This document shows positions 4,417 to 38,246 of a DNA stretch of 64,000 nt, one piece after another. Numbering within the stretch: position 1 is the first letter of the stretch; every line of letters starts with the position of its first letter. Made by a program: the position numbers and the translations under genes. The notes beneath the pieces were generated by a model. That model saw only the letters and a program-made list of their open reading frames with translations. It was not told the origin of the DNA and made no database searches. The stretch is from an uncultured Gammaproteobacteria bacterium (GTDB lineage Bacteria; Patescibacteriota; Microgenomatia; Levybacterales; UBA12049). The stretch is from contig CAYQEJ010000001.1 of the NCBI GenBank assembly GCA_964416505.1, positions 1,692 through 65,691 of the forward strand, in the 5' to 3' direction.

Positions 4417-4500
4417 TAATCCAAGAGTATAGCATATTTTCGTAATTTAACCTCAAAACCCCCATTTTTCAGGGAGTTTTGAGAACTTGATGGATTTAAA

Positions 4501-5010
4501 TTACCTTGGTCCATGAGGACCTCCATATTTCATAAATTTACCTCCCATGAGATAATTTATGTCTATTCCATTTTCTTTTGCCCAAGCTTCAAGATCAGTT
4601 TTTTCTTTTTCCATTTGAGTTTTCATCTCTTCTGGAGTTTTATTTTTAAAACTGTCTTTATTGGCTTCATGCTTTTCTTTTAGCTCTTTCTGCTTATTTA
4701 TTATTAGTGTTTTTTGAGCTTCTGTGATCTTGCTATCTTTGACTAATTGATTTAGTTTTTCTTCCTGCTTTTTTTGCATTTCAGCCTGCCTAGCTGATCT
4801 TTCTTCATCAAATACTTTTTGAACCTCATCCTTATTGAGTCCAAATTTATCTGCTATTTTCTGAACGATTGCATCATGTGGATTTGATGAATCTGCAGCG
4901 GAAGCGTTTGTAACTGTCAGGAGCCCTCCGGCGAGAACAGCAAGCGCCATTACTGGAAAAATTAGTTTTTTGTTTTTAATATTATTCACCTCCTTTCCAT
5001 GTTTTATCAT
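4501..5010 (-). CDS. secreted coiled-coil hypothetical protein
   Basis: Signal peptide 'LIFPVMALAVLAGGLLTVTNASA', followed by a K/E-rich heptad region. Confidence 0.45.
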   Translation of the reverse strand: MIKHGKEVNNIKNKKLIFPVMALAVLAGGLLTVTNASAADSSNPHDAIVQKIADKFGLNKDEVQKVFDEERSARQAEMQKKQEEKLNQLVKDSKITEAQKTLIINKQKELKEKHEANKDSFKNKTPEEMKTQMEKEKTDLEAWAKENGIDINYLMGGKFMKYGGPHGPR

Positions 5011-5462: not shown

Positions 5463-6134
5463 TTACTGGATATCTGTTTCAATTGAAACCACACCGTTTA
5501 TCGTAGCTCTTTGTACTATAGTTGAGTCCCCTTCTATACCTACTCTTTGAAAATATGGAAGATTAGGATCATTTACATAATCAGGAGTTAAGTTAGTTAT
5601 TTCTTCTGGTATTAGAAAATAATCATTCATTGCATGTAATAAAAAATCAGGCTGAAATGTATAGGAAAAAAGAATAGATTCTTGTTGAGGATTGGTAAGT
5701 TTTCCTTCTTCATTGAAGTTTAGAGATAAAGATGTCCGTAGTCTTCCCGGATTTAATTCAGCAGAATCTTCTACTATTAAAAAAACAGACCAGTCATTAG
5801 GCGTGCTTGCGGAAATTGGCTTTTGACCATATAAATATCTATGAACCGGAGCTTGATCTAGGGGAGCGCCTGGATCTTTAAAGAGGTCATGGGAGAAATA
5901 ATCTTGTGGCTTATCAATAAGTCTTTGTCTAAAAGTAGCCCAGAATTCAGGTTCCTGAGATTTGTCAACCAATTGATCTATAGCATCAACAAGAATTTGA
6001 TATTCAGGCCTTATGCTTTCTCCTTTTGAAGATTGTTCAGGGGAAGGATGAGGTTCATTAGCAGAAACAGCAACTGGAACTCCAAGCATCGTGAATGCTA
6101 TACCTAGAGCAGCTGATCTTTCTTTCCAGCCCAC
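5463..6134 (-). CDS. secreted hypothetical protein, atypical composition (inside palindrome-bounded cassette)
   Basis: Sec-type signal 'AALGIAFTMLGVPVAVSANEP'. Convergent with the 5125 ORF. Confidence 0.4.
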   Translation of the reverse strand: MGWKERSAALGIAFTMLGVPVAVSANEPHPSPEQSSKGESIRPEYQILVDAIDQLVDKSQEPEFWATFRQRLIDKPQDYFSHDLFKDPGAPLDQAPVHRYLYGQKPISASTPNDWSVFLIVEDSAELNPGRLRTSLSLNFNEEGKLTNPQQESILFSYTFQPDFLLHAMNDYFLIPEEITNLTPDYVNDPNLPYFQRVGIEGDSTIVQRATINGVVSIETDIQ

Positions 6135-6196
6135 GGTAAGATTATATTTAATAATTGATATCTGTCAAGCGTGAATAATGGATCTTATAGTTCGCT

Positions 6197-6225
6197 AGCC
6201 TTGCAAGGCCAGGCCTTGCGAGGCT
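6197..6225. repeat. 29-bp palindrome (copy 4, 2-nt variant AGCCTTGCAAGGCCAGGCCTTGCGAGGCT)
   Basis: Same element with TCG->TTG and CCTGG->CCAGG. Confidence 0.85.
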
Positions 6226-6238
6226 AAGAATATAGGTC

Positions 6239-7267
6239 TTAGCCTTTTAGAGGAAAACTAACTATGAATTTGGATCCTTCTTCCAGTTTACTTTCTACTG
6301 AGATTGAGCCATTGTGGAGGTCGGTAATTTTTTTTGCAATCGAAAGGCCAAGTCCATATCCTTTTTCATTTCTTGATTTGTCACTTCTGTAAAATCTATC
6401 AAAAATATGTGGTAAATCCTTTTCTGAAATACCAATCCCTTGATCTATTATTTGAATCTGTGCTCTTCCCTTTTCCGTGTCTGAATTAATTTTTATGGTT
6501 TGGCCGTTTTTTGAATACTTTATAGCATTGTCAATTAAGATTACAAATAATTCGGTTAATCTGTCACTTACTCCAATTATTTTTGTATTCTTAATATTTT
6601 TTTCCAATTTAATATTTTTTTTCTTTGCAAAAATTTCTGTTTTTTTAATTGCTATTTCTAGTATTTCTTTTATAGATATTTCTTTTAAGTTATTTTTATT
6701 AACTAATTTTCCATTCTGGGCTAGCTCTAGAAGATTATTGGATAATGTTTGAAGTCCAATAGTTTCTTCGAGATTACTTTTTAATACGCTTTTTGATTGT
6801 TTTAAAGACAGATTTTTATTTCTTAAAGCTACTTCTATTTCTGTTCTTAGAGTTGCAATGGGAGTTCTAAGTTCGTGTGAGGAATCAGAAATAAATCTCT
6901 TTTGCTCATCCATCATTTCTTTTATGGGTTTTAATGTTCTCCCAGCCAAGAAATATCCTGAAATTCCTGCAATTGCTAGAATTGATAGATTAATAAAACC
7001 AAGCATTATTAGGAATCTTTCTCGGGCCTTTTGGATTGTATCGGAGTCATCTTGTGTAAAAATAATAAAATCTTTTCTATGATTTTCATTAGGTGGAAGC
7101 ATGAATAACTTTTTTTGATAATCTTTACTTATTCTATCTTCCATTCTTTCAAATCTATCAAATTCCATATTTGCACTTTGATAAATTACCAAGCTAAAAA
7201 GCAGGCTGATAGACATTATTATTACTAAGTACCAAGCAGTTAATTTAATTCTAGCTTTCTCAAACAT
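6239..7267 (-). CDS. sensor histidine kinase
   Basis: Two N-terminal TM segments, an H-box 'SHELRTPIATL', and a G-box 'GYGLGLSIAKKITDLHNGSISVES'. Confidence 0.85.
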   Translation of the reverse strand: MFEKARIKLTAWYLVIIMSISLLFSLVIYQSANMEFDRFERMEDRISKDYQKKLFMLPPNENHRKDFIIFTQDDSDTIQKARERFLIMLGFINLSILAIAGISGYFLAGRTLKPIKEMMDEQKRFISDSSHELRTPIATLRTEIEVALRNKNLSLKQSKSVLKSNLEETIGLQTLSNNLLELAQNGKLVNKNNLKEISIKEILEIAIKKTEIFAKKKNIKLEKNIKNTKIIGVSDRLTELFVILIDNAIKYSKNGQTIKINSDTEKGRAQIQIIDQGIGISEKDLPHIFDRFYRSDKSRNEKGYGLGLSIAKKITDLHNGSISVESKLEEGSKFIVSFPLKG

Positions 7268-11531: not shown

Positions 11532-12800
11532 TTGGTTTTTGTTATGAGGGAAAAAGTTATACTTCATATAGATTTTGATTCTTTTTTCGCTTCATGCGAA
11601 CAACAGTTTAACCCTTCTTATAGAAATAGACCAATTGGTGTTACAGCCACAAACGGTAGAACTTGCATAATTGCGGCTTCCAGAGAGGCAAAGAAATTCG
11701 GAGTTAAAAATGTGACCAGGGTATGGGAAGCTAAGAAATTATGTCCTCAAATTATTCCGGTTCCTGCACATTTTACGAGATATTGGGAGATAACCCAGAA
11801 GTTCTTGAATATCTGTAAAGATTACTCTCCTTATGTAGAGCTTTTTTCTCTTGACGAAGTATTCATGGATATTTCATCAACAGAGCATTTGTTTGGTGGG
11901 CGTATGAAGATTATTGAAATCATTAAGAAAAGAATACGGGAGGAAATTGGCGAATACATTACCGTGTCAGTGGGCCTTTCTTATAATAAGCTTCTTGCGA
12001 AACTTGGATCAGGAATGAATAAGCCAAATGGATTTACCCATATTAAAAAAGATCAAGTTGAAGAAATTTATTCAAAGATTAAGCTTACTGATTTTTGCGG
12101 AATCGGAGAAAGAGTTGAGAAAAGATTAAATAAAATTGGAATTTTTACTCCACTTCAGCTTAGATCTGCATCTCTAGACATTCTAATTGAAGAGTTTAAA
12201 GATGTAGAAGGACATTTTTTAAAAAACTTAGGACTTGGTGAAGATGAACGTGATGTAATTCCCTATTATTTGCCTCAGGAGACAAAGTCGGTTGGTAGAA
12301 ATTATTGTATGCCGAAAAACGAATTTGATCAAAGAATAATTCTTCAAAATGTTTATGAACTTTGTGAGGAAATAGGAATAAAGCTAAGGCGTCTTAATAA
12401 GAAAGCCAGAACGATTGGTCTTTATCTAGGTGGAGCGCATACTTTTCATGGTAGAAAAACTTTAAGTTATCATATAGATAAAGGATCAGACATTTTTTCT
12501 CTTTGTAAAATTCTTTATGATTCATGGGGTTTAGCTAAGCTGCCCTACGAAGAAGGAATGGTTAGGCAAATTAGTGTTTGGGCTGGAAATTTAGAAGATA
12601 GTATAAATTTGACTCTTTCTCTTTTTGATACTCAGATAAAAACTTCTAAAATTCAACCGACAATTGATGCTTTAAATAAAAAGTTTGGACATAACACTAT
12701 AAGAAATGGTTTTGTGATGGATGGTCCAAATCTTAAAACAGTTCCAAATGGATTTATGGCAGATAGATTTGAACGAGCAAAATTAGTAGGAGTGATTTAG
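11532..12800 (+). CDS. dinB: DNA polymerase IV (Y-family)
   Basis: 'ILHIDFDSFFASCEQ' catalytic motif, 'FSLDEVFMD', and little-finger region. Confidence 0.85.
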   Translation: MVFVMREKVILHIDFDSFFASCEQQFNPSYRNRPIGVTATNGRTCIIAASREAKKFGVKNVTRVWEAKKLCPQIIPVPAHFTRYWEITQKFLNICKDYSPYVELFSLDEVFMDISSTEHLFGGRMKIIEIIKKRIREEIGEYITVSVGLSYNKLLAKLGSGMNKPNGFTHIKKDQVEEIYSKIKLTDFCGIGERVEKRLNKIGIFTPLQLRSASLDILIEEFKDVEGHFLKNLGLGEDERDVIPYYLPQETKSVGRNYCMPKNEFDQRIILQNVYELCEEIGIKLRRLNKKARTIGLYLGGAHTFHGRKTLSYHIDKGSDIFSLCKILYDSWGLAKLPYEEGMVRQISVWAGNLEDSINLTLSLFDTQIKTSKIQPTIDALNKKFGHNTIRNGFVMDGPNLKTVPNGFMADRFERAKLVGVI

Positions 12801-13606
12801 ATCAGGCAGACTTTTTTAGCTTCTGAAATTATATCGTCTCTTTTATTAAGAGGGATAGAGATTTGATTTAGGATTTCTGGATTTTCGCAAATACTTTTAA
12901 CCAAGACAACATTTTTGGCCAACAATTCTTGTTTTTGAGGCATAGAAAGAAATGATAATGCAGTTACAGGATAAAGCTTAAACTTTTCCACGAGTTCTCT
13001 CATGCTCTCTCCTTCCGGATGTTCCCAGCTTAAAACTTTTATACTTTGGCAGTCTGAGTACGCGAGTGCGTCAACTGTAACTTTTGTATTAGTAGCGAGC
13101 ATAACATCTGTAAATCCATGTTTTTCTTTCAGATCATCAAATCGGGCTTTTGTATAAAGAGCAACCTGAACATCTGATCTGGATCCGGGTCTATTGTGGA
13201 ATTTGCACTCAACCATTATTTTTTGAGTTTTATTTTTTGCAATAATATCTACTTCATGACTTACGCATTTGCCCATTAAGATTTCACCAACTTGTGTTTC
13301 ATATCCCTGAGCTTTTAAAATTTCTGCAACATATGCTTCGAATGGAAACCCCGTAGGCCCTAAATCCATGAGAGCGCGTTTTAAGGAGTATTTATTTTTA
13401 TAATAAGGGCTTTTTGTGTGTCCTAGATATTCTTCTAGATGGTAGTAGATTTCATGAGTTGGAATGTTTTCATAAAGATTTGATTTAATGTGCTCTAGAA
13501 CTTCTTCTTCAAGGTTTGCTGGAATCCCCGCTCGTCTAATTGAATCAATTAACTTTTTTTCGCTAAAATCTTCTGGTTGTCCATTTGCTTTTATAACAGT
13601 GGGCAT
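12797..13606 (-). CDS. ATP-cone domain fused to Mrr-type restriction-endonuclease-like domain
   Basis: N-terminal 'VIKANGQPEDFSEKKLIDSIRRAG' is NrdR-like ATP-cone. The central region has the Mrr_cat pattern (acidic/Lys residues 'HEVDIIAK...ECK'). Confidence 0.5.
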   Translation of the reverse strand: MPTVIKANGQPEDFSEKKLIDSIRRAGIPANLEEEVLEHIKSNLYENIPTHEIYYHLEEYLGHTKSPYYKNKYSLKRALMDLGPTGFPFEAYVAEILKAQGYETQVGEILMGKCVSHEVDIIAKNKTQKIMVECKFHNRPGSRSDVQVALYTKARFDDLKEKHGFTDVMLATNTKVTVDALAYSDCQSIKVLSWEHPEGESMRELVEKFKLYPVTALSFLSMPQKQELLAKNVVLVKSICENPEILNQISIPLNKRDDIISEAKKVCLI

Positions 13607-18002: not shown

Positions 18003-18746
18003 TTAAACTTTTGCTTCTTCTGATCTAGGAAGATCAATATTTTTTAAAATATCCCTAATTCTAAATGGTCTTCCTGCCAATGCTGGTGCAGCTGATCGTA
18101 CAGGGAGAGCCAAAGCTATTTGAATTAGATTAAGATCCATATAATCTTCAGCAGCATCAATCTGGTAGCCTGGCGCATTTACGGGTGAGTTGTGTTTGTA
18201 AGGCTCAAAAGACATGGACATTATTCCATAAGGTAAAAGTCTTTCATATGGAGTAGCAAAGCGTTCAAGAGTATCTACGAGAGCCATTCCTTTTAAAGCA
18301 AGAAATCTAATTTCTTCAGGATCTACTTCGTCTTCACCTTCTGCCATTTTTGTTTCAACTACAAGCCCCTTGTCTTTAGTTGATATTCTAATAGAATTTA
18401 CTTCAGGAGCTCTTTGATCCTCAGGAATAACAATTAAGCCATTATTAGAAATACGTACAGCGCTTTTATCTTTAAAAGCTATTGCTGATAAATTTAATAT
18501 TGCTTCGTATCTAGCGAAATACATTACTGATTCGAATTCTTGCTGAAGCATTTCTCCGGATGATGAGTTTATTCTTACGACACCGTATCTTCCATCACTT
18601 AAATTACCAGTAACGATATAATGAGATGCAACATATCTTCTATTTTCCCTATCGCTTGAATTGTAAAGTCCTACTCGCACATCTGGATGCGCTTCTAGGA
18701 TTGCTTCTACTGGTGTTAATGAAGGACCTTCTATAACTCTCGACAT
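18003..18746 (-). CDS. hypothetical protein, atypical composition
   Basis: The ORF-track start at 18764 is a TTG extension; the first ATG is at 18746. It is preceded by tcctatagTTGAAA-17-TAAAAT-8-ATG. Confidence 0.45.
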   Translation of the reverse strand: MSRVIEGPSLTPVEAILEAHPDVRVGLYNSSDRENRRYVASHYIVTGNLSDGRYGVVRINSSSGEMLQQEFESVMYFARYEAILNLSAIAFKDKSAVRISNNGLIVIPEDQRAPEVNSIRISTKDKGLVVETKMAEGEDEVDPEEIRFLALKGMALVDTLERFATPYERLLPYGIMSMSFEPYKHNSPVNAPGYQIDAAEDYMDLNLIQIALALPVRSAAPALAGRPFRIRDILKNIDLPRSEEAKV

Positions 18747-18754
18747 AGATGGGA

Positions 18755-18790
18755 ATTTTACCAAAATAAGAGGTTATTTTCAACTATAGG
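18755..18790 (-). promoter_or_regulatory. TCCTATAG-box sigma70 promoter immediately downstream of tRNA-Lys(CTT)
   Basis: Minus-strand sequence tcctatagTTGAAAataacctcttattttggTAAAAT. Confidence 0.5.
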
Positions 18791-18914: not shown

Positions 18915-19169
18915 TTATTTTGTTAATTTAGCAATCAATTTCAATTTATATTCTTTTTTCCATTTTTTGATCGCTGCTTCTCTTTTCCTGGCTTCAGACT
19001 GGTTTGTATACAATTCCGAATATACTAAACTTACTGGTCTTTTGCCTCGAAGTGATTTCGCACCTCGATTACTTGTATTATGTTCTAAGACACGTCTATT
19101 TATATCTGTTGTTATGCCTGTATATAAACTTTCGTCGCTACATTTTACTATATAAACGTGCCAATTCAT
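18915..19169 (-). CDS. GIY-YIG nuclease-family protein (standalone, about 84 aa)
   Basis: 'WHVYIVKCSDESLYTGITTDINRRVLEHN...GAKSLRG...LVYSE' is a canonical GIY-YIG core. The long ORF-track form overlaps tRNA-Arg, so I trimmed it to the internal ATG at 19169. Confidence 0.7.
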   Translation of the reverse strand: MNWHVYIVKCSDESLYTGITTDINRRVLEHNTSNRGAKSLRGKRPVSLVYSELYTNQSEARKREAAIKKWKKEYKLKLIAKLTK

Positions 19170-19227
19170 AATCAACAAATGTTTGCCCTGATGTTTGCAC
19201 TGAAAAATTTCGCTAAATTTTTTAGTG

Positions 19228-19300
19228 CGCGTCTGACAGGAGTCGAACCCGCAACCCCCTGGTCCGAAGCCAGGTGCTCTATCCATTGAGCTACAGACGC
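19228..19300 (-). tRNA. tRNA-Arg (anticodon TCG, tentative)
   Basis: Acceptor GCGTCTG/CAGACGC, D-loop AGCTCAATGGATAGAGC, anticodon stem CCTGG/CCAGG with loop CTTCGGA, T-arm GGTTCGACTCC. Confidence 0.65.
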
Positions 19301-19345
19301 AGATCAATTTTATCAAATCGTCTTGTAGTACTCAAATGAGGAGTA

Positions 19346-28850: not shown

Positions 28851-31724
28851 TTAAAGTATTTTTTTGAGAAACGCTCCAGTGTGAGATCTTGGATTATCGG
28901 CAATTTCCCGTGGGGTTCCTGTTGCAACTATATTTCCTCCGCCTTCTCCACCTTCTGGTCCTAAATCTATTATATAATCTGCGTTTTTAATAATATCAAG
29001 GTTATGTTCAATAACGATCACGCTATTTCCAATATCTACCAATTTTCTAAGAACGTGAAGTAATTTTTCTAGATCTGCAAAATGTAATCCTGATGTTGGT
29101 TCATCCAAAAGATAGAGTGATTTCGCTCCTCTTTTGGAAAGTTCGGATGCTAATTTTACTCGCTGTGCTTCTCCTCCTGAAAGAGTTGGGGCGGGTTGAC
29201 CGAGTTTTACATATGAAAGCCCTACGTCATTTAAAGTTAAGAGTCTATTTGATAAGGAAGGAATGAAGTTGAAGAATTCTGCAGCTTCTAAAACGCTCAT
29301 ATCTAATACATCGGCAATGTTTTTTCCATTAAACATTACTTCCAATGCTTCTTTGTTATATTGCTTTCCTTCACAAACTTCGCATGTTATATAAACATCT
29401 GGTAAGAATTGCATTTCAATTTTGATTTGGCCTTCTCCCTCGCAAGCTTCACATCTTCCACCTTTTACATTGAAGGAAAATCTGCCGGGTGCATATCCTT
29501 TAAGTCTAGCGTCCTTTGTTTTTGCAAAAATATCCCTGATGTAATTAAACGATCCGGTATATGTTGCCGGATTACTCCTAGGGGTTCTTCCAATTGGAGA
29601 TTGATCAATTGAGTAAATGTGTTTTATATGCTCATATCCTTGAATACTTGTGTGTTTTCCTGGTTTTTCTCTGTGGAAAGGATCTTCTAATTGTTTTAAA
29701 CCATGGTATAAAATATCGTTAATCAAAGTTGATTTTCCGCTTCCTGAAACGCCTGTCACTACGATTAATTTTCCTAGTGGAAATTCTACATCTATATTTT
29801 TTAGATTATGCTCACTTGCTCCTCTTATGATTAGTTTTTCATTTATTCCATTTTCCATTTTTTTCTCTACTTTTATTTTTCTTTTTTTGGAAAGATATGC
29901 ACCTGTTAGGGAAGCTTCATCTTTTTTAATTTCATCTATTGTTCCTTCAAATATAATATTTCCTCCACCCTCTCCTGCCTGAGGACCAAAGTCTACAATG
30001 TAATCTGACGCTTCCATCGTCTCTTCATCATGTTCAACAACAAGAACTGTATTTCCTAAATTCTTGAGCTTTATCAAGGTTTCTATAAGTTTTTTATTAT
30101 CTCTTTGATGAAGTCCTATCGAAGGTTCATCCAAAACATATAGAACTCCAGTAAGTCCCGAGCCAATTTGAGATGCTAGCCTAATGCGTTGTGCTTCTCC
30201 TCCGGCTAAGGTATCCGCTCCACGAGAAAGAGTAAGGTAATCAAGTCCAACATTTGTTAAGAAGGTAAGACGCTGTATTATTTCTTTGAGAATTAATCTT
30301 CCGATTGTCTCTTCACGAGATGAGATGCTTGCTGGGAGTGTCTCAAAAAATTTTAGAGCTTTATCAATAGAAACATCCGAAATTTCCATGATCGACTTTC
30401 CATTTATTGTTACCATGAGTGCCTCTTTCCTAAGGCGTGAGCCTTTACAGGATGGACAGGTTTCATATTTCATGAATTTTTCAATTTGGGATTTGAAAAA
30501 AGTTGATTCTGTATTCTGATATCTATTTGTAAGTTCCTGAAGAATTCCCGGAAATTTTTCTGAAATTGTCGTATTTCTTCCCCACCTGTTTTCTCCGTGA
30601 ACAAAATATTCTCTATCCCCCGTTCCTTCTAGAAGTATTTGTTTTTTCTCAGGAGAAATTTCTGATAGCCTTTGGCTAAGTGGAATCCCATTGTTTTCAG
30701 CAAATGTCTTAAAAGTTCTAGTAAACCATGTATCATGAGATAAAAGATTTGAGAATGGAAGAACCCCACCTTCTAGAATTGTAAGATTATTATTGAATAC
30801 AAGTTCTTTATCTACTGTAAGAATGTTACCCAAGCCATCGCAGGTGGGACATGCTCCATGTGGAGTATTAAAAGAAAAGATGCGTGGTTCTACTTCTGCT
30901 ATAGAAATATTACATACAGGACAGGCAAATTTAGTGGAATATAAATTATCTTCCATTTTTTTTGGTTTATCTGGAATTTCAAATCCTGGGTCTTTAATAA
31001 TTGTTAGTATTATTTCCCCGTCACCAAATTTGAGTGCTTGTTCTACGTCACTTGATACTCTTGAGCGATCAGTTTTATCTGAGAGCATGAGCTTATCAAT
31101 TATTACTTCGATTGAGTGTTTATTAGTTTTTATAAGCACTAGATCATCAGATAAGTCAAATATATGACCATCAACTCTAACCTGCTTGTAGCCTCTTTTT
31201 CTTAAATCTTCAAAAAGATCACGATATTCACCCTTTCTGTCTTTAACCATTGGAGAAAGGATCATTGCTTTTGTTTGTTTGGAATTTTGCATTGCTGAAA
31301 AATTCATTATCATGTCTGTAATTTGATCAGGCGATACACGAGAAATTTCTCTTCCGCAGTTAGGGCAATGTGGGTGCCCTATACGAGCAAATAGAAGTCT
31401 TAAATAATCATAGATTTCAGTGACGGTTCCAACTGTTGATCTGGGATTTCTGGATGTTGATTTTTGATCAATTGAAATTGCAGGAGAGAGCCCTTCTATG
31501 AGATCCACATCTGGTTTTTTCATTACGCCTAAGAATTGTCTTGCGTAAGAAGATAGAGATTCTACATATCTTCGTTGACCTTCTGCGTAAATGGTGTCAA
31601 AGGCCAATGAAGATTTTCCACTACCTGACAGACCGGTAAAAACGACCAGTTTATTTTTAGGAATTTTAAGATCAATATTTTTGAGGTTATGCTCTCTAGC
31701 GCCTTTTACAATAATTTCGTCCAT
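28851..31724 (-). CDS. uvrA: excinuclease ABC subunit A
   Basis: Two ABC ATPase modules ('GLSGSGKSSLAFDTIYAEGQRRY', 'GVSGSGKSTL') and zinc-finger Cys clusters. 957 aa. Confidence 0.95.
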   Translation of the reverse strand: MDEIIVKGAREHNLKNIDLKIPKNKLVVFTGLSGSGKSSLAFDTIYAEGQRRYVESLSSYARQFLGVMKKPDVDLIEGLSPAISIDQKSTSRNPRSTVGTVTEIYDYLRLLFARIGHPHCPNCGREISRVSPDQITDMIMNFSAMQNSKQTKAMILSPMVKDRKGEYRDLFEDLRKRGYKQVRVDGHIFDLSDDLVLIKTNKHSIEVIIDKLMLSDKTDRSRVSSDVEQALKFGDGEIILTIIKDPGFEIPDKPKKMEDNLYSTKFACPVCNISIAEVEPRIFSFNTPHGACPTCDGLGNILTVDKELVFNNNLTILEGGVLPFSNLLSHDTWFTRTFKTFAENNGIPLSQRLSEISPEKKQILLEGTGDREYFVHGENRWGRNTTISEKFPGILQELTNRYQNTESTFFKSQIEKFMKYETCPSCKGSRLRKEALMVTINGKSIMEISDVSIDKALKFFETLPASISSREETIGRLILKEIIQRLTFLTNVGLDYLTLSRGADTLAGGEAQRIRLASQIGSGLTGVLYVLDEPSIGLHQRDNKKLIETLIKLKNLGNTVLVVEHDEETMEASDYIVDFGPQAGEGGGNIIFEGTIDEIKKDEASLTGAYLSKKRKIKVEKKMENGINEKLIIRGASEHNLKNIDVEFPLGKLIVVTGVSGSGKSTLINDILYHGLKQLEDPFHREKPGKHTSIQGYEHIKHIYSIDQSPIGRTPRSNPATYTGSFNYIRDIFAKTKDARLKGYAPGRFSFNVKGGRCEACEGEGQIKIEMQFLPDVYITCEVCEGKQYNKEALEVMFNGKNIADVLDMSVLEAAEFFNFIPSLSNRLLTLNDVGLSYVKLGQPAPTLSGGEAQRVKLASELSKRGAKSLYLLDEPTSGLHFADLEKLLHVLRKLVDIGNSVIVIEHNLDIIKNADYIIDLGPEGGEGGGNIVATGTPREIADNPRSHTGAFLKKIL

Positions 31725-31767
31725 TTTGATGAGCTACTATTATAAAGGAAATTTTTACTTATAACAA

Positions 31768-32442
31768 TCATGGACGCCAGGCTTCATAAGCATAGTAGTC
31801 TCCACTTTTTCCAACACATGCATAAGGAGTATCTTTAAGCATGTTTGCATGATGTCCTGGAGAATCAATCCAGCCTTGTACAATTTTTGTAATATCTCCA
31901 CCCATTGCTATGTTTTCTACAACCTCACGATAAGAAGGATATGGAAGTGATTTTGAATTAACTCTGTTCGAGAATCCATCATGATTAAAGCCATTTACGA
32001 TTTCACCTGCTCTTGTAATTGCGAAGCCACATGTATATGGATCCGAGGATACACTAGAAAGACCATTTGATGCCCGAAAATTATTAATTTCATTTAAAAG
32101 TTCGCTTTCCCCGCCAGAGTATGAGCTGGGAGGGTTGTTATTTGTAGAATTTTCTGATGGAGCTTTGGTCGGTTCGGGTTTTGGTGTTGGTGAAGGAGTA
32201 ATCGAGATTGGTTTGGTAGGGATAAGTGTTATAGTTCTGTTAGCAACTCTACTAGAAACTACAGAATAATTTGAAGCTTCATTTGTGTTTAGTGTGACCG
32301 TTTTTGGACTTTCAATTGTGGTTTTTTGGTAGCTATTTTTTTTCTGAATATCGAATATTAGAAGTACATCTAGAATTAATAAGCAACTTATCAAAAAGGT
32401 TCGATTGATAGTCCAAAACACACATTGATAATAACAAATCAA
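31768..32442 (-). CDS. CAP (SCP/PR-1/YkwD-like) domain secreted protein
   Basis: 'GWIDSPGHHANML' and 'NFRASNGL' are CAP-domain motifs. N-terminal hydrophobic anchor and a P/T-rich linker. Confidence 0.65.
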   Translation of the reverse strand: MICYYQCVFWTINRTFLISCLLILDVLLIFDIQKKNSYQKTTIESPKTVTLNTNEASNYSVVSSRVANRTITLIPTKPISITPSPTPKPEPTKAPSENSTNNNPPSSYSGGESELLNEINNFRASNGLSSVSSDPYTCGFAITRAGEIVNGFNHDGFSNRVNSKSLPYPSYREVVENIAMGGDITKIVQGWIDSPGHHANMLKDTPYACVGKSGDYYAYEAWRP

Positions 32443-32508
32443 TATTAATTTTCAACACCTAAAATGACATTTATAGGATTTGTTTTTAATTGATATATTT
32501 TGTGCATA

Positions 32509-32537
32509 TTGACTTGAAATTTTTCACAGCATAATAT
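32509..32537 (+). promoter_or_regulatory. sigma70 promoter of the 32780 repeat-protein gene (start of an ~235-nt leader)
   Basis: TTGACT-17-TAATAT. Confidence 0.45.
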
Positions 32538-32654
32538 CTTAAAATAATCAAAAATTCTTGATTGTCGAGTATTAACAACATAATCAAGAAAAGTTCTGAC
32601 CGCAAACGGAAGAATGAAATTAACTGTCCAAATTAATTTAGACTATTAGAGAAA

Positions 32655-32687
32655 AGCCTAGTATAGAAATATACGGGCTTTTTTTGT
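32655..32687 (+). terminator. leader-internal intrinsic terminator (GAAA tetraloop hairpin plus U7), putative attenuator
   Basis: AGCCtaGTATA-GAAA-TATACGGGCT followed by TTTTTTT, about 95 nt upstream of the SD/ATG. Confidence 0.5.
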
Positions 32688-32779
32688 GCTTTTACGGTTG
32701 CAATTGCTGATTAATTTGGAAACACCGGTTGGAAAAAGCTGCCCTTTTTCTAACCACATCATGAAAGGAGGTGAATAAA

Positions 32780-33382
32780 ATGATAAGTTATACAAAAAAA
32801 TTAGGAACAGCATTTGCTACTGCAACATTAATTGCTTCAGTATTTGCTCCTATTGCAAGCGCAGATACAAATGTTACTGTAAGCGATAATGGTCATGCTT
32901 CAAATAATACAGTTAATGTTACAAATAACAATACTGTTAACGTAACCCAATCAAACGTAATGACTGTGGGTTTGAACATAAATTCTTCTGCAAATACAGG
33001 AGGAAATAGTGCAAATGGTAACACGGGTGGAAATGTAACAATTTCTACCGGGAATGCTACAAGCAATGTAACCGTTGCTGTCGAAGGAGGATCAAACACA
33101 GCTGATCTATCAAACTGTGGATGTGGAACTACCAACGATACTGTAGAAATAAAAGATAACGGAGGCAAATCTAAGAATAAAGTTACTATAAATAACAAAA
33201 ATTCTAAGAAGGTAACTCAAACAAGCGTAGTTACTGTTTCCGCAGGTGTAAATTCTAAAGCAAAGACAGGATACAATAAAGCGAACAAAAACACTCAGGG
33301 AAATGTAAATGTCACAACTGGTGACTCTGAGTCTACTGTTGATGTTTTGGTGAGTGCACCATCTAATGATGTTAGTCTCTAA
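32780..33382 (+). CDS. secreted Asn/Thr/Gly-rich modular repeat protein (family member 1 of 4)
   Basis: Signal peptide, then repeated 'NTGGNSANGNTGGNVTISTGNATSNVTV' modules with a 'NCGCG' Cys pair. SD AAAGGAGG 7 nt upstream; the track start at 32771 is GTG. Confidence 0.55.
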   Translation: MISYTKKLGTAFATATLIASVFAPIASADTNVTVSDNGHASNNTVNVTNNNTVNVTQSNVMTVGLNINSSANTGGNSANGNTGGNVTISTGNATSNVTVAVEGGSNTADLSNCGCGTTNDTVEIKDNGGKSKNKVTINNKNSKKVTQTSVVTVSAGVNSKAKTGYNKANKNTQGNVNVTTGDSESTVDVLVSAPSNDVSL

Positions 33383-33400
33383 AAAGGGATTGCATTTTCA

Positions 33401-33430
33401 AAAACCCTGCCCTGTGCAGGGTTTTTGGGT
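33401..33430 (+). terminator. rho-independent terminator
   Basis: AAAACCCTGCcctgtGCAGGGTTTTTGGGTTTT. Confidence 0.6.
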
Positions 33431-33440
33431 TTTAAGAAGA

Positions 33441-33483
33441 TTTTGCAAAGACGAGTAGGCGTTTGAATGAAGTTCCGATTGGC
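33441..33483. repeat. 43-bp direct repeat A: displaced copy of the sortase 3' coding end (5 mismatches)
   Basis: The reverse complement encodes PIGTSFKRLLVFAK, matching the sortase C-terminus PIGTSFKRLLIFAKPV encoded at 34333..34375. Confidence 0.8.
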
Positions 33484-33594
33484 ACGCCCGCAACTGCTCG
33501 CAGTTTTGCATTTCGGGCGAGACAGTTATTAACAAAGACTTACTTTTCAGGTGAAGTAAATATTAAAATTATTTTGAATGGGGTTTCTACTCAG

Positions 33595-33632
33595 TCCTAT
33601 AGTTTGACATTTTTAGCCTCGATTGATATACT
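33595..33632 (+). promoter_or_regulatory. TCCTATAG-box consensus promoter of the cassette gene
   Basis: tcctatagtTTGACA-17nt-TATACT-11nt-ATG (33644). Confidence 0.55.
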
Positions 33633-33643
33633 TTCGGACTATT

Positions 33644-34321
33644 ATGACAAGAAAAGAAGTTTTGTCTGGAGAATCCGTTGTTGAAGGACGAGAATCAGTA
33701 CCAGATGATAGACTAATTGCCTTATGGCAAAAGTTAAATTACGGGTCTCATATAGCTGGTGAAGTTGCAAATAGAAATTTATTTACCCATGCGTTTAGGC
33801 ATTCAGGATATAGTATAGAGGGAAAAAAAGTATCAATATCTTTTGGATATAAACGACCTGGAGTCATTTATAGATTACTAGACACTTATGGATATAAATA
33901 TACTCTCAAACCAGGAGTTGTTCTTGATGCAAGACAGACTGCTGCTTTTTACCAAGGAGTTGCTGGAATAAGCATTATAGAGCAAGTAGATGAATTATCG
34001 GAGCGAAGACTAGATTTAGCTGTTAGAAGAGATGGGCAGATCATAGAATCTGCTGTCGCTGAATCTACGCATGGGTTAAGTACTCAGGGCGTAGGCTTGG
34101 TAACATCTCTATGGCAAGAAAATGATTATTATAGAGACTTGTTAGATGGAGATTGCGAAGGTAGGATAGATGCGCAAACTCATGCTTTTGTAGCAAGACG
34201 AGGTATTACGTTAAGTGAAATAGAGCCTGCGGAAAGATATTTAGGTGCGATTGTTGGATATCTCCAAGGTTTACGCCGTGGTCCTCAACCATTTTTTCCA
34301 GTATCCCCTTCTGTTAAATAA
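33644..34321 (+). CDS. hypothetical protein (cassette passenger), atypical composition
   Basis: The ORF-track start at 33623 is a TTG that overlaps the -10; the first ATG is at 33644 (MTRKEVLSGES...). No family recognised. Confidence 0.45.
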   Translation: MTRKEVLSGESVVEGRESVPDDRLIALWQKLNYGSHIAGEVANRNLFTHAFRHSGYSIEGKKVSISFGYKRPGVIYRLLDTYGYKYTLKPGVVLDARQTAAFYQGVAGISIIEQVDELSERRLDLAVRRDGQIIESAVAESTHGLSTQGVGLVTSLWQENDYYRDLLDGDCEGRIDAQTHAFVARRGITLSEIEPAERYLGAIVGYLQGLRRGPQPFFPVSPSVK

Positions 34322-34323
34322 GT

Positions 34324-34899
34324 TTACACGGGTTTTGCAAAGATTAGGAGGCGTTTGAATGAAGTTCCGATGGGCCAGCATGTTTGGATAATTAATTGAT
34401 CTTTCGTTTCTTTTAGATACTTAACTTCTGAAGGAGAAACAATTTTTTTTTCAAAAACTTTATACTTAAATTCTTTTCCGTCCTTTTTAATAATTATTTG
34501 ATCATTTTTATTTAATTCTCCAAGACGTAGGAAAATTGTATTATATCTTGTGATTTCTAAAGGATTTCCTGATGAGTGTGCAAAAACAAATATACTCCCC
34601 TTTTCTCCAGGTTTTGCTGTTCCTTTGGCTTGGGCCACACCTGTTTTTAAAACTTCCTGATAAACCTTTTCGTTAAAAGGGTCTACATCCATTTTCAATG
34701 GAGCTTGAGCATTTATTTTGGGAATCGTTATAAATGATCCATTTAGCTCATTTTGAGATTTAATTTTTGGAGGAAAAAGATAAGTAGAAATAACTGGAGT
34801 AAAAATAATAAATAGTAAGAAAAGAGATGTGATAATTAAAAAATTTCCTACATGGTAGGAAAGATTTTTTTGTTTTTTTTGAATTTTCTTCTTTTTCAC
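34324..34899 (-). CDS. sortase (transpeptidase)
   Basis: N-terminal TM, 'FVFAHSSGN' (His), 'LIIQTCWP' (TLxTC Cys) and a conserved Arg near the C-terminus. Adjacent to an LPXTG substrate. The last 14 codons coincide with direct repeat B. Confidence 0.8.
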   Translation of the reverse strand: MKKKKIQKKQKNLSYHVGNFLIITSLFLLFIIFTPVISTYLFPPKIKSQNELNGSFITIPKINAQAPLKMDVDPFNEKVYQEVLKTGVAQAKGTAKPGEKGSIFVFAHSSGNPLEITRYNTIFLRLGELNKNDQIIIKKDGKEFKYKVFEKKIVSPSEVKYLKETKDQLIIQTCWPIGTSFKRLLIFAKPV

Positions 34900-34917
34900 G
34901 AGGAGAATTCTACCAGA

Positions 34918-36024
34918 TTACCTGGCAAATAGATAGTTTGGAGATCTTCCAGACCGTAGCCGCAAGTACCCACCCATAAAAAGCATTACTATATTTCCAA
35001 TTAGTAGGAAAAGAAGAGAAAAGTTACCTGTTATTGGAAGTATTTGTCCTGTGGTAGTTCCTGCTGTAGTTCCCCCTGATCCTCCTCCGTTATTACCATT
35101 TCCATTATTGTTGTTGCCGTTGTTTGAAGATGGTGGTGGAGTTGAGTCTGGTGGATTTTTTGTCGGGTCTTCATGGCAGCAGTCAACGTCTACAATTCCT
35201 CCGTTTATGTCTTTATTATCGATGGTTGTTGTGAGATAAATATCTCCTGTATTTATGTCTACGTTCCCATTGTTGTTATTTGCGCTGTTTTTTCCAGTAT
35301 TTAAATCCCAGTTAGAATTATTTACGATATTTGCGCTACTTTCGATATTTATATTTAGTGGATTCGAGTTGCTGTAGTTAACTTGATTATCAGATTTTGC
35401 TCCGTTTCCTTTTATAACTATATACGCACTTGCCCCGCTTGGATTTCCTGCGTGAACATTATAGATATTTATTCCTGAATTATTAATTATATCTGTTACG
35501 TAAATACTTCCTGTGTTTATGCTTACATTCCCAAGATTATTATTTGCACTATTGTAGCCGGTATTTGCTTTTCCTTTTACGTTGTTAGTTATGTTTGCAT
35601 TATTTGATACGTTTACATTTGTCGTTGAATTGGAATTAAAGTTAATCGAATTATCAGAATATGTCCCATTACCGGAAATATTGAATGTTTGATCATTCGT
35701 ACAGCAACCAAGCTCAACTGAGCTTTGATTTATATTTTCATTGTTAATTTGGGAATTTACTGTTGCATTTCCGGTATTTATATTTGTTTCTCCTGAGTTA
35801 TTGTTCGCGCTGTTTCCACCAGTATTAGCGGTGGTATTTACAGTATTAGTTATATTTGCATTATTTTCTTGATTTACAGTAGTAGTTTGAGTAGACGTGA
35901 CCGAAACATTGTTATCTGCTCCAGATCCATTATTTTCAATTACAATTGTCTCTGCAAATACTTTATATGGATTTGCAAGCAAAACTACAGATAAAAGACC
36001 CAATAAAATTTTTTTGTTTAACAT
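34918..36024 (-). CDS. LPXTG-anchored Asn/Thr/Gly-rich repeat surface protein (family member 2)
   Basis: Signal peptide. C-terminus 'LPITGNFSLLFLLIGNIVMLFMGGYLRLRSGR' has LPxTG, a hydrophobic stretch and a basic tail. Cys pairs 'GCC' and 'DCCHED'. Gly/Asn-rich pre-anchor spacer. Confidence 0.7.
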   Translation of the reverse strand: MLNKKILLGLLSVVLLANPYKVFAETIVIENNGSGADNNVSVTSTQTTTVNQENNANITNTVNTTANTGGNSANNNSGETNINTGNATVNSQINNENINQSSVELGCCTNDQTFNISGNGTYSDNSINFNSNSTTNVNVSNNANITNNVKGKANTGYNSANNNLGNVSINTGSIYVTDIINNSGINIYNVHAGNPSGASAYIVIKGNGAKSDNQVNYSNSNPLNINIESSANIVNNSNWDLNTGKNSANNNNGNVDINTGDIYLTTTIDNKDINGGIVDVDCCHEDPTKNPPDSTPPPSSNNGNNNNGNGNNGGGSGGTTAGTTTGQILPITGNFSLLFLLIGNIVMLFMGGYLRLRSGRSPNYLFAR

Positions 36025-36071
36025 AACTATATTTAGGCAGGAATTTACTAAATCCGAGGCAGAGGATTTAA

Positions 36072-38246
36072 TTAGACAGATTTAACTTTAATATATAATT
36101 TTCGACTTATTATAAATATTGCTAAAACAGGTAGTGCTAAGATAGCCCATGCTAAATTGACTGTTGGTTTTCCTGAATCATTTATTCCTTTTGTAAGTGA
36201 TCCCATTATTTTTGCTGTGTTTGCTCCTGCAACTTTTATATCTACATTTGGAGTAAATCCGTTTGAAGTAAATGTTGCAACTCCACCATTTGATCCACCC
36301 ACTGCTGCCACAGTTGTTGATTTAGTTGTATTTGTGCTTTCTGTTGATGAGTTATTGTTGCTAGAGTTATTTGATCCGGTTCCGCCCTGAGCGAGCACTT
36401 CATTGTTTTCTTTATGTTCTTTTGAGCTTCCTGGAGTAATAAAGTCTCCAATCCAGCTTCCAAAAACATTTACAACAGTTACTACTAATTTTCCATTTCC
36501 TACAATATTGTTGTTTACGAAATTCACTAAGTTAGCTACGATATTTGCATCTCCAGTTGTAATATTTGAATTTCCTCCTGTGTTGTAGTTAGTGGTGTTG
36601 TTTCCTGTGTTTGCTGACAAATTGAGAGTGTTATTTATGTCTGCAGTATTTGTTTGAGTGGTCGTATTATTAACTGTAGTTGATCCGTTAGCTACGTTGG
36701 TAGAATCTGCTCCATTTCCTGAATTTGTTGCAGTTATGCTTCCGGTTACAGGATTTATTAAGAATTGGAATAGTGGAGAACCAGCGAAGTTATTTCCATC
36801 TTGAGATCCAAACAATTTTCCAACCCAGTTTCCTGCTTCGTTCACTATTACTAACCACATGGTTCCTCCCATAAGATTCATGTTTGCAATATTTAAGATG
36901 TTTGCATCAATGTTTGAAGATCCGGTAGATATATTGTTGTCTCCACCAGTATTGAATTTGGAATCATTGTTTCCTGTATTTGCATCAAGTACTAATGTGT
37001 TTGTGATGTTGGCATCATTTGATTGGAATGTGTTGTTGTTAATAGTCGAATCAGAATTTGTTGTATTGCTCGATCCTGCTCCGTTTCCTGTATTTGAAAG
37101 CATTGTTGTGTCTCCACAGCTTCCTCCACAGATTGCATCCATCATTTCTTGGGTTAATATAATGTCTCCGACTAAATTTCCAAAAATATTTACTACGCCG
37201 TAAATTACGTTGCCCGCGATATTGTTGTTGGCAAATGTAACTGCATTTGCTGAAACATTTGCGTCACCAGTAGTGATGTTTGAGTCTCCACCTGTATTAA
37301 AGCTTGCTCCGTTGTTTCCGCTATTTGATGCAAGATTTAAGTTATTCCCTACAGTTGCGCTGTTGGTTTGATTTGTGTTGTTGTTTACTGTTGAGTCATT
37401 GGTTGCTTCATTGTAGGAGAATGCTCCATTTGCATCATTTTCTAAAGCTAGGCTTTGTCCACATCCTGCGATGCATCCTGCGTTGAAGTCCAAGATTATG
37501 TCTCCTTGATGGTCGTCTACTATATTGAACTCAGCTACAGCTACTCCATCCACGTTTGTATTTACAGATGTAACTACTGTTCCAGTTGTATTTGCGTCGC
37601 CTGTTGTTATTGAAGAATTCCCTACGTTAAATGAAGAATCATTATTTCCTGTAACGGTTGAGGAATTCATATTGTTGGATACGTTTGCGCTATTTCCCTG
37701 ATTTGTATTATTGTTTGTTGTTGATGAAGAATCGCCAATATTTGTTGAACCTGCACCATTTTCTGAATTAGAAATTGAAGTGCTTCCTCCACCACAGCAT
37801 CCGCTTGATGAAGTATTATTATTTCCGGTCGTTATTATTGATGAAGAATTGCTTCCATCCCCTGTGTTTATAGATGTATCTCCAACATTTCCATTTGAAG
37901 AGGTTCCTGTTCCTGATGAAGTAGGAGTTTGAGTTGTATCTGTTGTATTTGATGAAGCTGCTGGTGTAGGAGCTGGTTTTTCTTTTGGTTTATAGTTATC
38001 TGGATTCCAGGTTGGAGCTGTTGGTGCAGTAGGTGCAGTTGGCGCTGTAGGAGCCGTAGGAGCACTTGGTGCAGTTGGCGCTGTAGGAGCAACCGGTTCT
38101 TGTGGAGCAGTAGGTTCAGGAGTAGGTTGTACGGATGATGTATCGGCTGGAGTGGATTCTTCTGCAAGAACTGCAAAAGATGTACCCATTCTTCCGAAGA
38201 GCATAATTCCTATTAATAATATTGCGATTGATTTTTTAATTTTCAT
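36072..38246 (-). CDS. large secreted Asn/Thr/Gly-rich repeat protein with Pro-rich (TAP)n linker and C-terminal TM anchor (family member 3)
   Basis: Signal peptide; 'APTAPTAPSAPTAPTAPTAPTAPTAPT'; about 8 repeat modules with CC/CG Cys pairs; C-terminus 'LAWAILALPVLAIFIISRK'. Confidence 0.6.
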   Translation of the reverse strand: MKIKKSIAILLIGIMLFGRMGTSFAVLAEESTPADTSSVQPTPEPTAPQEPVAPTAPTAPSAPTAPTAPTAPTAPTAPTWNPDNYKPKEKPAPTPAASSNTTDTTQTPTSSGTGTSSNGNVGDTSINTGDGSNSSSIITTGNNNTSSSGCCGGGSTSISNSENGAGSTNIGDSSSTTNNNTNQGNSANVSNNMNSSTVTGNNDSSFNVGNSSITTGDANTTGTVVTSVNTNVDGVAVAEFNIVDDHQGDIILDFNAGCIAGCGQSLALENDANGAFSYNEATNDSTVNNNTNQTNSATVGNNLNLASNSGNNGASFNTGGDSNITTGDANVSANAVTFANNNIAGNVIYGVVNIFGNLVGDIILTQEMMDAICGGSCGDTTMLSNTGNGAGSSNTTNSDSTINNNTFQSNDANITNTLVLDANTGNNDSKFNTGGDNNISTGSSNIDANILNIANMNLMGGTMWLVIVNEAGNWVGKLFGSQDGNNFAGSPLFQFLINPVTGSITATNSGNGADSTNVANGSTTVNNTTTQTNTADINNTLNLSANTGNNTTNYNTGGNSNITTGDANIVANLVNFVNNNIVGNGKLVVTVVNVFGSWIGDFITPGSSKEHKENNEVLAQGGTGSNNSSNNNSSTESTNTTKSTTVAAVGGSNGGVATFTSNGFTPNVDIKVAGANTAKIMGSLTKGINDSGKPTVNLAWAILALPVLAIFIISRKLYIKVKSV

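Follow-up and report, generated by a model that had tools for sequence, protein, structure and literature searches.

Several described systems resemble the locus analysed herein. First, CIMEs of 1.2-13 kb with cargo and microCIMEs of 130-220 bp, which contain no genes, are decayed integrative elements that still have their att sites and occur in tandem at gene 3' ends, and their streptococcal targets are the 3' ends of rpmG, rpsI, fda and rplL (PMC7563491). Second, sequential displacement that left orphaned 3' regions is described for the T6SS effector-immunity arrays of V. cholerae and for Rhs and CDI loci with orphan C-terminal modules, a process attributed to homology-facilitated illegitimate recombination (PMC5361080). 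The present locus lies behind a sortase gene in a 64-kb stretch of DNA (the window, meaning the whole stretch that was analysed) from an uncultured bacterium of the candidate phyla radiation (CPR). CPR bacteria have tiny genomes, for which, to our knowledge, mobile elements and recombination hotspots have seldom been described.

Like CIMEs and microCIMEs, the locus contains integrase-less units between direct repeats of the 3' end of a protein-coding gene, including gene-less units of ~100-200 bp, tandem arrays and a target gene that is kept intact. Unlike those elements, the units are smaller (~0.8 kb and ~0.1 kb), the repeats are strongly divergent in one related locus (L014), and the cassette of another (L001) has no distal repeat. 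The resemblance to T6SS/Rhs/CDI displacement (PMC5361080) would consist of a conserved upstream gene part that acts as the anchor, of a new 3' end and cargo arriving from relatives while the old end becomes a downstream relic, and of mostly clean exchanges with a minority that leave relics, together with mosaic alleles in close relatives. The differences are that the gene concerned is a housekeeping-type sortase in which only 2-4 residues vary past the conserved block, that the relics are ~50 nt long and have no toxin or immunity function, that one convergent orphan gene, equipped with a promoter of its own, makes up the cargo, and that the host is an uncultured CPR bacterium.

Results

Anatomy of the sortase 3' end

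The sortase is the last gene of a conserved operon, following genes for a 724-aa and a 368-aa surface protein. An initial genome scan with the single sortase as query gave no matches; hundreds of homologues (55-69% identity) were found in Levybacteria and other Microgenomates, and the C-terminus, WPIGTSxKRLLxFAxPxx, is among the best conserved stretches of the protein. Across 78 related loci the upstream operon is conserved, whereas the gene 3' of the sortase varies widely. Read in the sortase sense, the window contains the functional sortase end, a cassette with the orphan gene ORF225, a decayed sortase end, a spacer, a hairpin, a distal copy of the sortase end and a terminator, as follows.

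34324..34899, minus strand: sortase CDS, 191 aa, last gene of the surface-protein operon (Pfam PF04203, E 5.5e-24)
34375-34324: functional sortase end
34333..34375, minus strand: functional 43-nt copy, codons PIGTSFKRLLIFA, then tail KPV*
34321-33593, antisense to the sortase: ORF225 cassette
33644..34321, plus strand: ORF225, orphan cargo gene, convergent with the sortase
33595..33632, plus strand: ORF225 promoter with TCCTATAG edge motif (TTGACA 33604-33609, 17-nt spacer, TATACT 33627-33632)
33540..33589, minus strand: third, decayed sortase 3' end, ..ETPFKIILIFTSPEK*, stop 33540-33542 (DNA local alignment)
33521..33539, minus strand: spacer homologous to the first post-stop bases of the L001, L014 and L072 sortases
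33481..33520, minus strand: conserved 40-nt hairpin element TCGCCCGAAATGCAAAACTGCGAGCAGTTGCGGGCGTGCC, stem CGCCCG/CGGGCG
33432..33483, minus strand: distal sortase-end relic, comprising the 43-mer 33441-33483, tail KSS and stop 33432-33434 (HMM E 2.4e-9)
33399..33427, both strands: bidirectional intrinsic terminator, perfect 12-nt inverted repeat I6 (terminator scan)
32771..33382, plus strand: convergent gene for an N/T/S/G-rich surface protein of 203 aa, bordering the variable interval on the right

The sortase operon shares its terminator with the convergent surface-protein gene, whose 203-aa product was matched, with an ATG start, by exact sequence look-up.

A preliminary description of this DNA had reported that extra DNA at the sortase 3' end is flanked by a duplication of the gene end while the gene stays intact, and this was confirmed. 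The copy at 34333-34375 forms the last codons of the sortase (PIGTSFKRLLIFA), the copy at 33441-33483 still encodes a sortase end on the minus strand (PIGTSFKRLLVFAKSS*), and the hairpin, the consensus promoter and the ORF at 33644-34321 are all present between them. The start-to-start spacing of the copies is 892 nt. Their identity required correction, 39/43 positions being identical instead of 38/43, and the four mismatches (sortase sense, read by eye) are c/a, c/a, a/c and a/g. The 43-mer had no further match with <=3 mismatches within the 64 kb and zero matches in 100 shuffles. Logan contig L006 (SRR12487045) covers both 43-nt copies and Logan contig L175 (DRR685535) covers the distal copy through the ORF start, each identical to the window; with two independent assemblies in exact agreement, the arrangement is unlikely to be an artefact of assembly. 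Apart from the existence of a repeat at a gene 3' end, nothing speaks for chance similarity, an artefact or the repeat pair of a diversity-generating retroelement: the shuffles argue against the first and the Logan contigs against the second, while the four mismatches are not adenine-specific and no reverse transcriptase family is among the families listed for the window ORFs. The probability of this group of explanations is negligible, and the retroelement and artefact readings are excluded. The same holds for an integron cassette, as no integrase family was found in the window, the ORF has no inverted-repeat site at its 3' end, and it has its own promoter.

A third, decayed sortase end between the cassette and the hairpin

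The 43-mer pair had been proposed to bracket the ORF cassette as attL and attR. This pairing did not hold, since a decayed third sortase end, missed in the preliminary description, lies at 33540-33589 as the actual distal neighbour of the cassette, and the distal 43-mer belongs to a separate module composed of the hairpin and a gene end. Aligned on the minus strand with the L001 sortase end and its post-stop bases, the middle copy scored 43 (maximum of 29 in 1000 shuffles, p<0.001), and the alignment was also significant against the sortase ends of L010, L072 and L014. It reads ..FKIILIFTSPEK* on the minus strand, and the copy resembles the SPEK* sortase ends of L001 and L010. In the MAFFT alignment, the middle copy lines up with the genuine L014 sortase end, and the whole of window 33383-33600 (minus strand) is collinear with the corresponding L014 stretch, which runs from the sortase end through the spacer, hairpin and copy to the terminator. 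The resemblance holds at the DNA level; the C-terminal protein HMM did not detect the middle copy. The distal repeat partner of the cassette is this decayed copy, not the 43-mer to which it had been assigned. On the explanation proposed below, the 39/43 identity of the outer copies reflects either the relatedness of the alleles involved or gene conversion, and does not mark a recent target duplication made by the cassette.

States of the interval in related loci

The arrangement is not common to all relatives. Neither unit is present in L008, L015, L037 and L168, the cassette alone is present in L001, the hairpin module alone in L014 and L012, and both in the window. The cassette and the repeat module are separate units, because all four combinations exist. 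L001 has the synteny of the window (UvrA, CAP, a 201-aa gene, ORF223 and the sortase; UvrA 87% identical to that of the window) and neither the distal copy nor the hairpin. In the four empty loci the sortase stop is directly followed by the terminator hairpin, so that the predicted empty sites with a single copy were found; the L168 sortase is 98% identical to that of the window. The L168 and window sequences share 97.4% identity over 651 nt up to window position 34337, at the end of the 43-mer, where homology stops, and the distal copy with the terminator start matches the L168 sortase end and terminator at 78% over 68 nt. The downstream gene of L168 is of a type unrelated to that of the window, and its right flank is a different allele.

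Close relatives differ in the same way. L001, L014, L008 and L072, with UvrA proteins that are 91-95% identical, present four states of the interval: the cassette, the hairpin module, an empty site and a PIN_12 gene, respectively. Other occupants include orphan ORFs in L170 and L174 and a lipoprotein-like ORF in L027, and IS200-like Y1_Tnp genes lie directly 3' of the sortase in seven loci (L020, L032, L053, L046, L013, L007 and L173). No gene-end repeats accompany the PIN_12 gene, the L170/L174 ORFs or the Y1_Tnp genes. The alleles are mosaic: the downstream surface-protein gene of L008 is of the L012 type (82% identity, vs ~43% to its own clade), and surface-protein allele types have been exchanged between lineages. 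Besides L012 and L014, further sortase-end relics were found in L079, where the relic has G/C-ending codons at places at which the gene has A/T-ending ones, and in L070, where the relic is preceded by a GC-rich hairpin.

These data bear on the main alternative, namely that a tyrosine or serine recombinase encoded elsewhere integrates elements site-specifically at the sortase 3' end, where they accrete in tandem. The ORF225 unit would then be a small CIME-like element, the spacer and hairpin a microCIME-like remnant, and the three gene-end copies attL, a hybrid att and attR. The geometry envisaged in the preliminary description is partly supported, and ORF225, which has no family match, is the only ORF between the repeats, with no recombination or transfer genes. 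The three direct copies begin at about the same codon and run to a stop, the duplicated segment begins at eight bases that form a palindrome in some lineages (CCTATAGG; CCAATTGG in L014), the conserved 40-nt element next to the distal copy may be an arm or recombinase-binding site, single-copy empty sites exist, and tandem arrays of CIMEs and microCIMEs are on record for the 3' ends of protein-coding genes (PMC7563491). What fails is the assignment of repeats to units: the same repeats do not delimit the same unit, given that L001 has the cassette without the distal repeat and that L014 and L012 have the module without the cassette. In addition, the two L014 copies are only ~64% identical in DNA (by-eye count), and other cargo at the site is without repeats. 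As noted before, the cassette and its surroundings have no recombinase gene: at E<=1e-4, the families listed for the window ORFs include no integrase, resolvase or transposase, none was found among the inspected ORFs adjoining the sortase in related loci, and neither an integrase-bearing relative nor an attP for the direct repeats appeared in the viral and metagenome scans or in the related loci. We know of no cognate integrase-bearing element for this site. Site-specific accretion is a serious but unlikely explanation, and the data fit recombination with an imprecise end no less well.

ORF225 and its promoter

ORF225 is a real gene under selection, since comparison with its L001 homologue gave a pN of 0.17 and a pS of 0.48 (pN/pS 0.35). 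Its homologues form one cluster (P0001, 69% identity) in 5.8e9 clusters. A HMMER profile search of 1.84e9 representatives revealed no true remote homologue; the search returned the homologue already known, a piece of that protein and a tenascin-like protein from a vertebrate, and the tenascin-like match is an artefact in which 13 weak fibronectin-repeat matches were summed. No match was obtained in Pfam, PHROG, NCBIfam or PADLOC, and a structure predicted from a 2-sequence alignment was unusable (pLDDT 38.8). The pS of 0.48 (0.39-0.58) is the lowest of seven locus genes compared between the window and L001, the others ranging over 0.63-0.73. Together with the patchy distribution of the gene, this value hints, by a modest margin, that lateral exchange may have occurred after the lineages split.

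The ORF had been described as GC-richer and of foreign composition. The higher GC content (0.38) was confirmed, and it comes from the amino-acid composition; the codon usage is not foreign, because the GC3 of 0.20 lies within the 0.17-0.30 of nearly all window genes. The promoter (TTGACA-17-TATACT) was likewise confirmed as the best sigma-70 match in 3.8 kb (11/12), and ~43/45 of its bases (by eye) agree with those of the promoter of ORF223 in L001. At its edge lies the GTCCTATAGTT(T)GA motif, which also precedes four other window genes as well as the unrelated cargo genes behind the sortase in L170, L174 and L027. Judged from these likenesses, ORF225 and its promoter look native rather than foreign, and the promoter type is typical of the lineage. 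The locus thus indicates a set of orphan genes that have one promoter motif in common (GTCCTATAGTTTGA promoters).

The ORF225 stop lies 2 nt from the sortase stop, and no terminator separates the two genes; the first terminator-like site on the ORF225 strand is at 34844-34862, inside the sortase 5' region. Because the genes are convergent and have no separating terminator, the ORF225 transcript probably runs antisense into the sortase, and antisense interference of this predicted transcript with the sortase is plausible.

The hairpin and distal-copy module

The 40-nt hairpin, which overlaps the nested hairpin of the preliminary description, has homologues in L014 (5563-5602) and L012 (5560-5599), with 39/40 identical positions between L012 and L014 and 34/40 between the window and L014. 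In all three loci the hairpin directly precedes the distal copy, and a stop codon and terminator follow the copy. A six-frame search for the sortase C-terminal peptide located the second copies of L012 and L014 ~60-70 nt past the sortase stop, with no ORF between. The two L014 copies are identical in 13/13 amino acids and differ at ~16/45 bases (counted by eye), and the last 33 nt of the two L012 copies are identical (by eye). The L012 and L014 sortases are ~61% identical and their flanks do not align, despite the 39/40 identity of the hairpin, which suggests that the element may be under selection or mobile. In a blastn-short search that covered the window and all loci, the hairpin matched the three known sites only, exact-pattern scans of viral contigs and JGI metagenomes returned no copy, and among the related loci no donor arrangement with a hairpin after the sortase and without the gene-end copy was found. 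A looser junction pattern matched 81 contigs, all by chance and mostly in high-GC sequence. Fold energies ranged from -16 to -20 kcal/mol (z -1.1 to -2.2), no compensatory pairs were observed in the covariation analysis, and an Rfam scan of 33300-34500 gave chance-level matches only (E>=1). Readings of the hairpin as tRNA-like or as a terminator only were considered and dropped.

A functional role has to be weighed against these findings, whereby the hairpin and distal copy would be a selected 3' UTR element of the operon. Its variants are a regulatory RNA, a protein-binding site or a spare gene end; in the spare-end variant, recombination between the repeats would delete the cassette and leave the sortase intact. 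The conservation of the hairpin between distant lineages, the open frame and family-invariant residues retained by the distal copies, and the identical end of the L012 copies, which suggests ongoing exchange between them, are in favour of such a role. However, the module is present in only 3, perhaps 4, of ~80 related loci, the fold energies are modest and lack covariation, no Rfam family is matched, and an origin from another sortase allele or gene conversion explains the amino-acid conservation equally. We consider a selected element improbable.

Mobilisation in trans by an HUH (IS200/IS605-type Y1) transposase, with the hairpin as the relic end of a PATE-like element, was considered in view of the Y1_Tnp genes, which are flanked by hairpins, immediately downstream of the sortase in the seven loci listed above. 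The locus resembles IS200/IS605 elements and PATEs in its small hairpin-bearing units and in the presence of Y1 genes in the same interval of seven relatives. It differs from them in that the relatives' Y1 elements have other hairpins (CACCTnnnAGGTG, GGTCCGACC) and no gene-end duplication, that the gene end is duplicated here, and that no Y1_Tnp is among the families listed for the window. The IS200/IS605 family makes no target duplication. Moreover, inverted-repeat analysis found no hairpins flanking ORF225, and the single hairpin of the window is one-sided. Such mobilisation is very improbable.

Discussion

In the present study, the sortase 3' end of the window was found to hold one functional and two further gene ends. 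Herein, we propose that the locus bears the scars of DNA having been replaced or inserted serially, with the conserved C-terminal coding block of the sortase as the anchor, an explanation to which we assign a probability of about one in two. According to this proposal, the interval between the sortase block ..WPIGTSxKRLLxFA and the terminator common with the convergent gene would be a hotspot in Levybacteria. Homology within the sortase end or upstream of it would anchor incoming DNA from related lineages; most events would be clean replacements of the downstream DNA, and some would end in an imprecise join on the far side, so that a new sortase end and cargo are installed and the old sortase end is displaced downstream as a relic. 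We infer both this imprecise end and the order of events: the window would record at least two, the older of which left the spacer, the 40-nt hairpin and the distal copy, and the later of which placed the present sortase end and the ORF225 cassette upstream and stranded the middle, decayed copy. ORF225 itself would be passive cargo, a real, selected and cytoplasmic orphan protein expressed from a strong lineage-native promoter.

Several observations favour serial replacement. First, all four combinations of the two units exist, and the window is collinear with L014. Second, close relatives differ in the state of the interval and their alleles are mosaic. Third, the relics resemble the alleles of other lineages. 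Fourth, cargo swaps are often clean and repeat-free. Fifth, no recombinase was found in the 64 kb or in the inspected ORFs adjoining related sortases, and no attP-like copy of the hairpin in the viral or metagenome collections. The layout also agrees with displacement as described elsewhere, with a conserved anchor on one side and non-homologous DNA on the other (97.4% identity to L168, then unrelated sequence) and with displaced gene fragments kept downstream, namely the middle and distal relics of the window and those of L012, L014, L070 and L079.

Other observations count against serial replacement. For the hairpin-module family, for the middle copy and for L070, the 5' boundaries of the relics are clustered at the P-I-G codons (CCNATNGG), and random illegitimate joins should scatter. 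This clustering could result from microhomology with the cassette edge or from instability of longer repeats; the edge, CTATAGG, resembles the sortase P-I-G codons CC(T/A)ATAGG, and decay obscures the join. The 39/40 conservation of the hairpin between L012 and L014, the better preservation of the relic in the oldest position relative to the middle one, and the failure to find a sortase-hairpin donor without the copy among the related loci likewise weigh against the proposal.

A more speculative idea is that the palindromic P-I-G codons (CCWATWGG) and the GTCCTATAG motif, which lies at the outer edge of every cargo promoter, are recombination sites of an undescribed CPR cassette system. If so, orphan genes with their promoters would be stacked behind the sortase by some enzyme acting in trans, and the 40-nt hairpin with its gene-end copy would be a miniature, non-autonomous form. 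We regard this idea as a long shot.

The locus adds an example from a CPR lineage to the known kinds of gene-end scars at variable loci, and on present evidence it reveals no new mobility mechanism. The conserved hairpin and the promoter motif of the cargo genes most deserve further study. Close relatives exchange small accessory genes at the end of the conserved operon for the surface proteins and the sortase, and these swaps leave datable gene-end relics, which offer a concrete handle on gene flow in uncultured Levybacteria.

Cargo behind the sortase gene in related loci

Several kinds of cargo were observed in the variable interval between the sortase gene end and the terminator shared with the convergent surface-protein gene. 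First, at seven related loci (L-numbers), the sortase gene is directly followed by a gene for an IS200-like Y1 (HUH) transposase.

IS200-like Y1 transposase genes
L020, 779-1552
L032, 5615-6301
L053, 611-1261
L046, 3309-3914
L013, 5834-6283
L007, 960-1214
L173, 3055-3729

Short hairpins, CACCTnnnAGGTG or GGTCCGACC, flank these genes where the flanks were read (L020, L032, L053 and L173). Among the 59 ORFs scanned in the window outside 28851-38246, no integrase, resolvase or transposase families were listed.

Second, the same interval is filled in L072, which is closely related to L001 and L014, by a PIN_12-domain gene (5635-6525) with its own promoter and a C-terminal zinc ribbon. Third, two convergent cargo ORFs are stacked behind the L170 sortase (661-1587 and 1640-1876); L170 agrees with the window in its sortase tail and in the 2-nt spacing at the stop-to-stop junction, whereas the cargo is different. 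The second of these ORFs looks like a homologue of L174 ORF284 (3646-4500) because a C-terminal stretch, aligned by eye, is common to both; no match between the two was found using tblastn.

Relic sortase ends, hairpins and allele exchange

Further relics, i.e. extra copies of the sortase 3' end, were observed in two loci.

L079, 5643-5709, relic sortase end, reads MIICQTCTPIGTAFKRLLVFADPVY*
L070, 5590-5650, relic sortase end, reads GPPDTDCKRFLIFAKPT*

The L079 relic has G/C-ending codons, unlike the L079 sortase gene itself, and a CCGCCtctGGCGG hairpin and GCGGGCC lie upstream of the L070 relic. In the window, the sortase 5' coding region contains a perfect 8-bp hairpin (34844-34862) that has T-runs on either strand. 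Downstream of the convergent orphan gene ORF225, no terminator-like site precedes this hairpin on the ORF225 strand.

The convergent surface-protein gene of L008 (5674-6255) shares 82% identity with that of the distant L012 (5773-6330), but only approximately 43% with the genes of its own clade, and this sequence relationship indicates an exchange of alleles at the sortase locus.

Gene composition and a promoter-edge motif

Two amino-acid composition classes, K/N/I-rich and R/A/G/P-rich, were observed among the window genes, with equally low GC3 in both; many of the R/A/G/P-rich genes apparently have no Pfam match. The ORFs outside 28851-38246 include two proteins placed from translated sequences.

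12797-13606, Mrr-type restriction endonuclease domain protein
18915-19316, small GIY-YIG protein

Five genes of the window, including ORF225, have the promoter-edge motif GTCCTATAGTT(T)GA upstream, and in relatives this motif was also observed at the head of unrelated cargo genes directly behind the sortase.

Promoter-edge motif sites
Window, 16740(-)
Window, 16786(+)
Window, 18790(-)
Window, 33596(+)
Window, 54415(+)
L001, 9953
L170, ~1625-1640
L174, ~4535-4550
L027, 5603

All five window genes encode products poor in K/N/I and rich in R/A/G/P. Of the four window genes with the motif besides ORF225, three were scanned and had no Pfam match (18003-18764 was not scanned separately), and the fourth appears to be the polysaccharide deacetylase match of the window. 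The motif could define a regulon or, alternatively, mark a class of variable genes.
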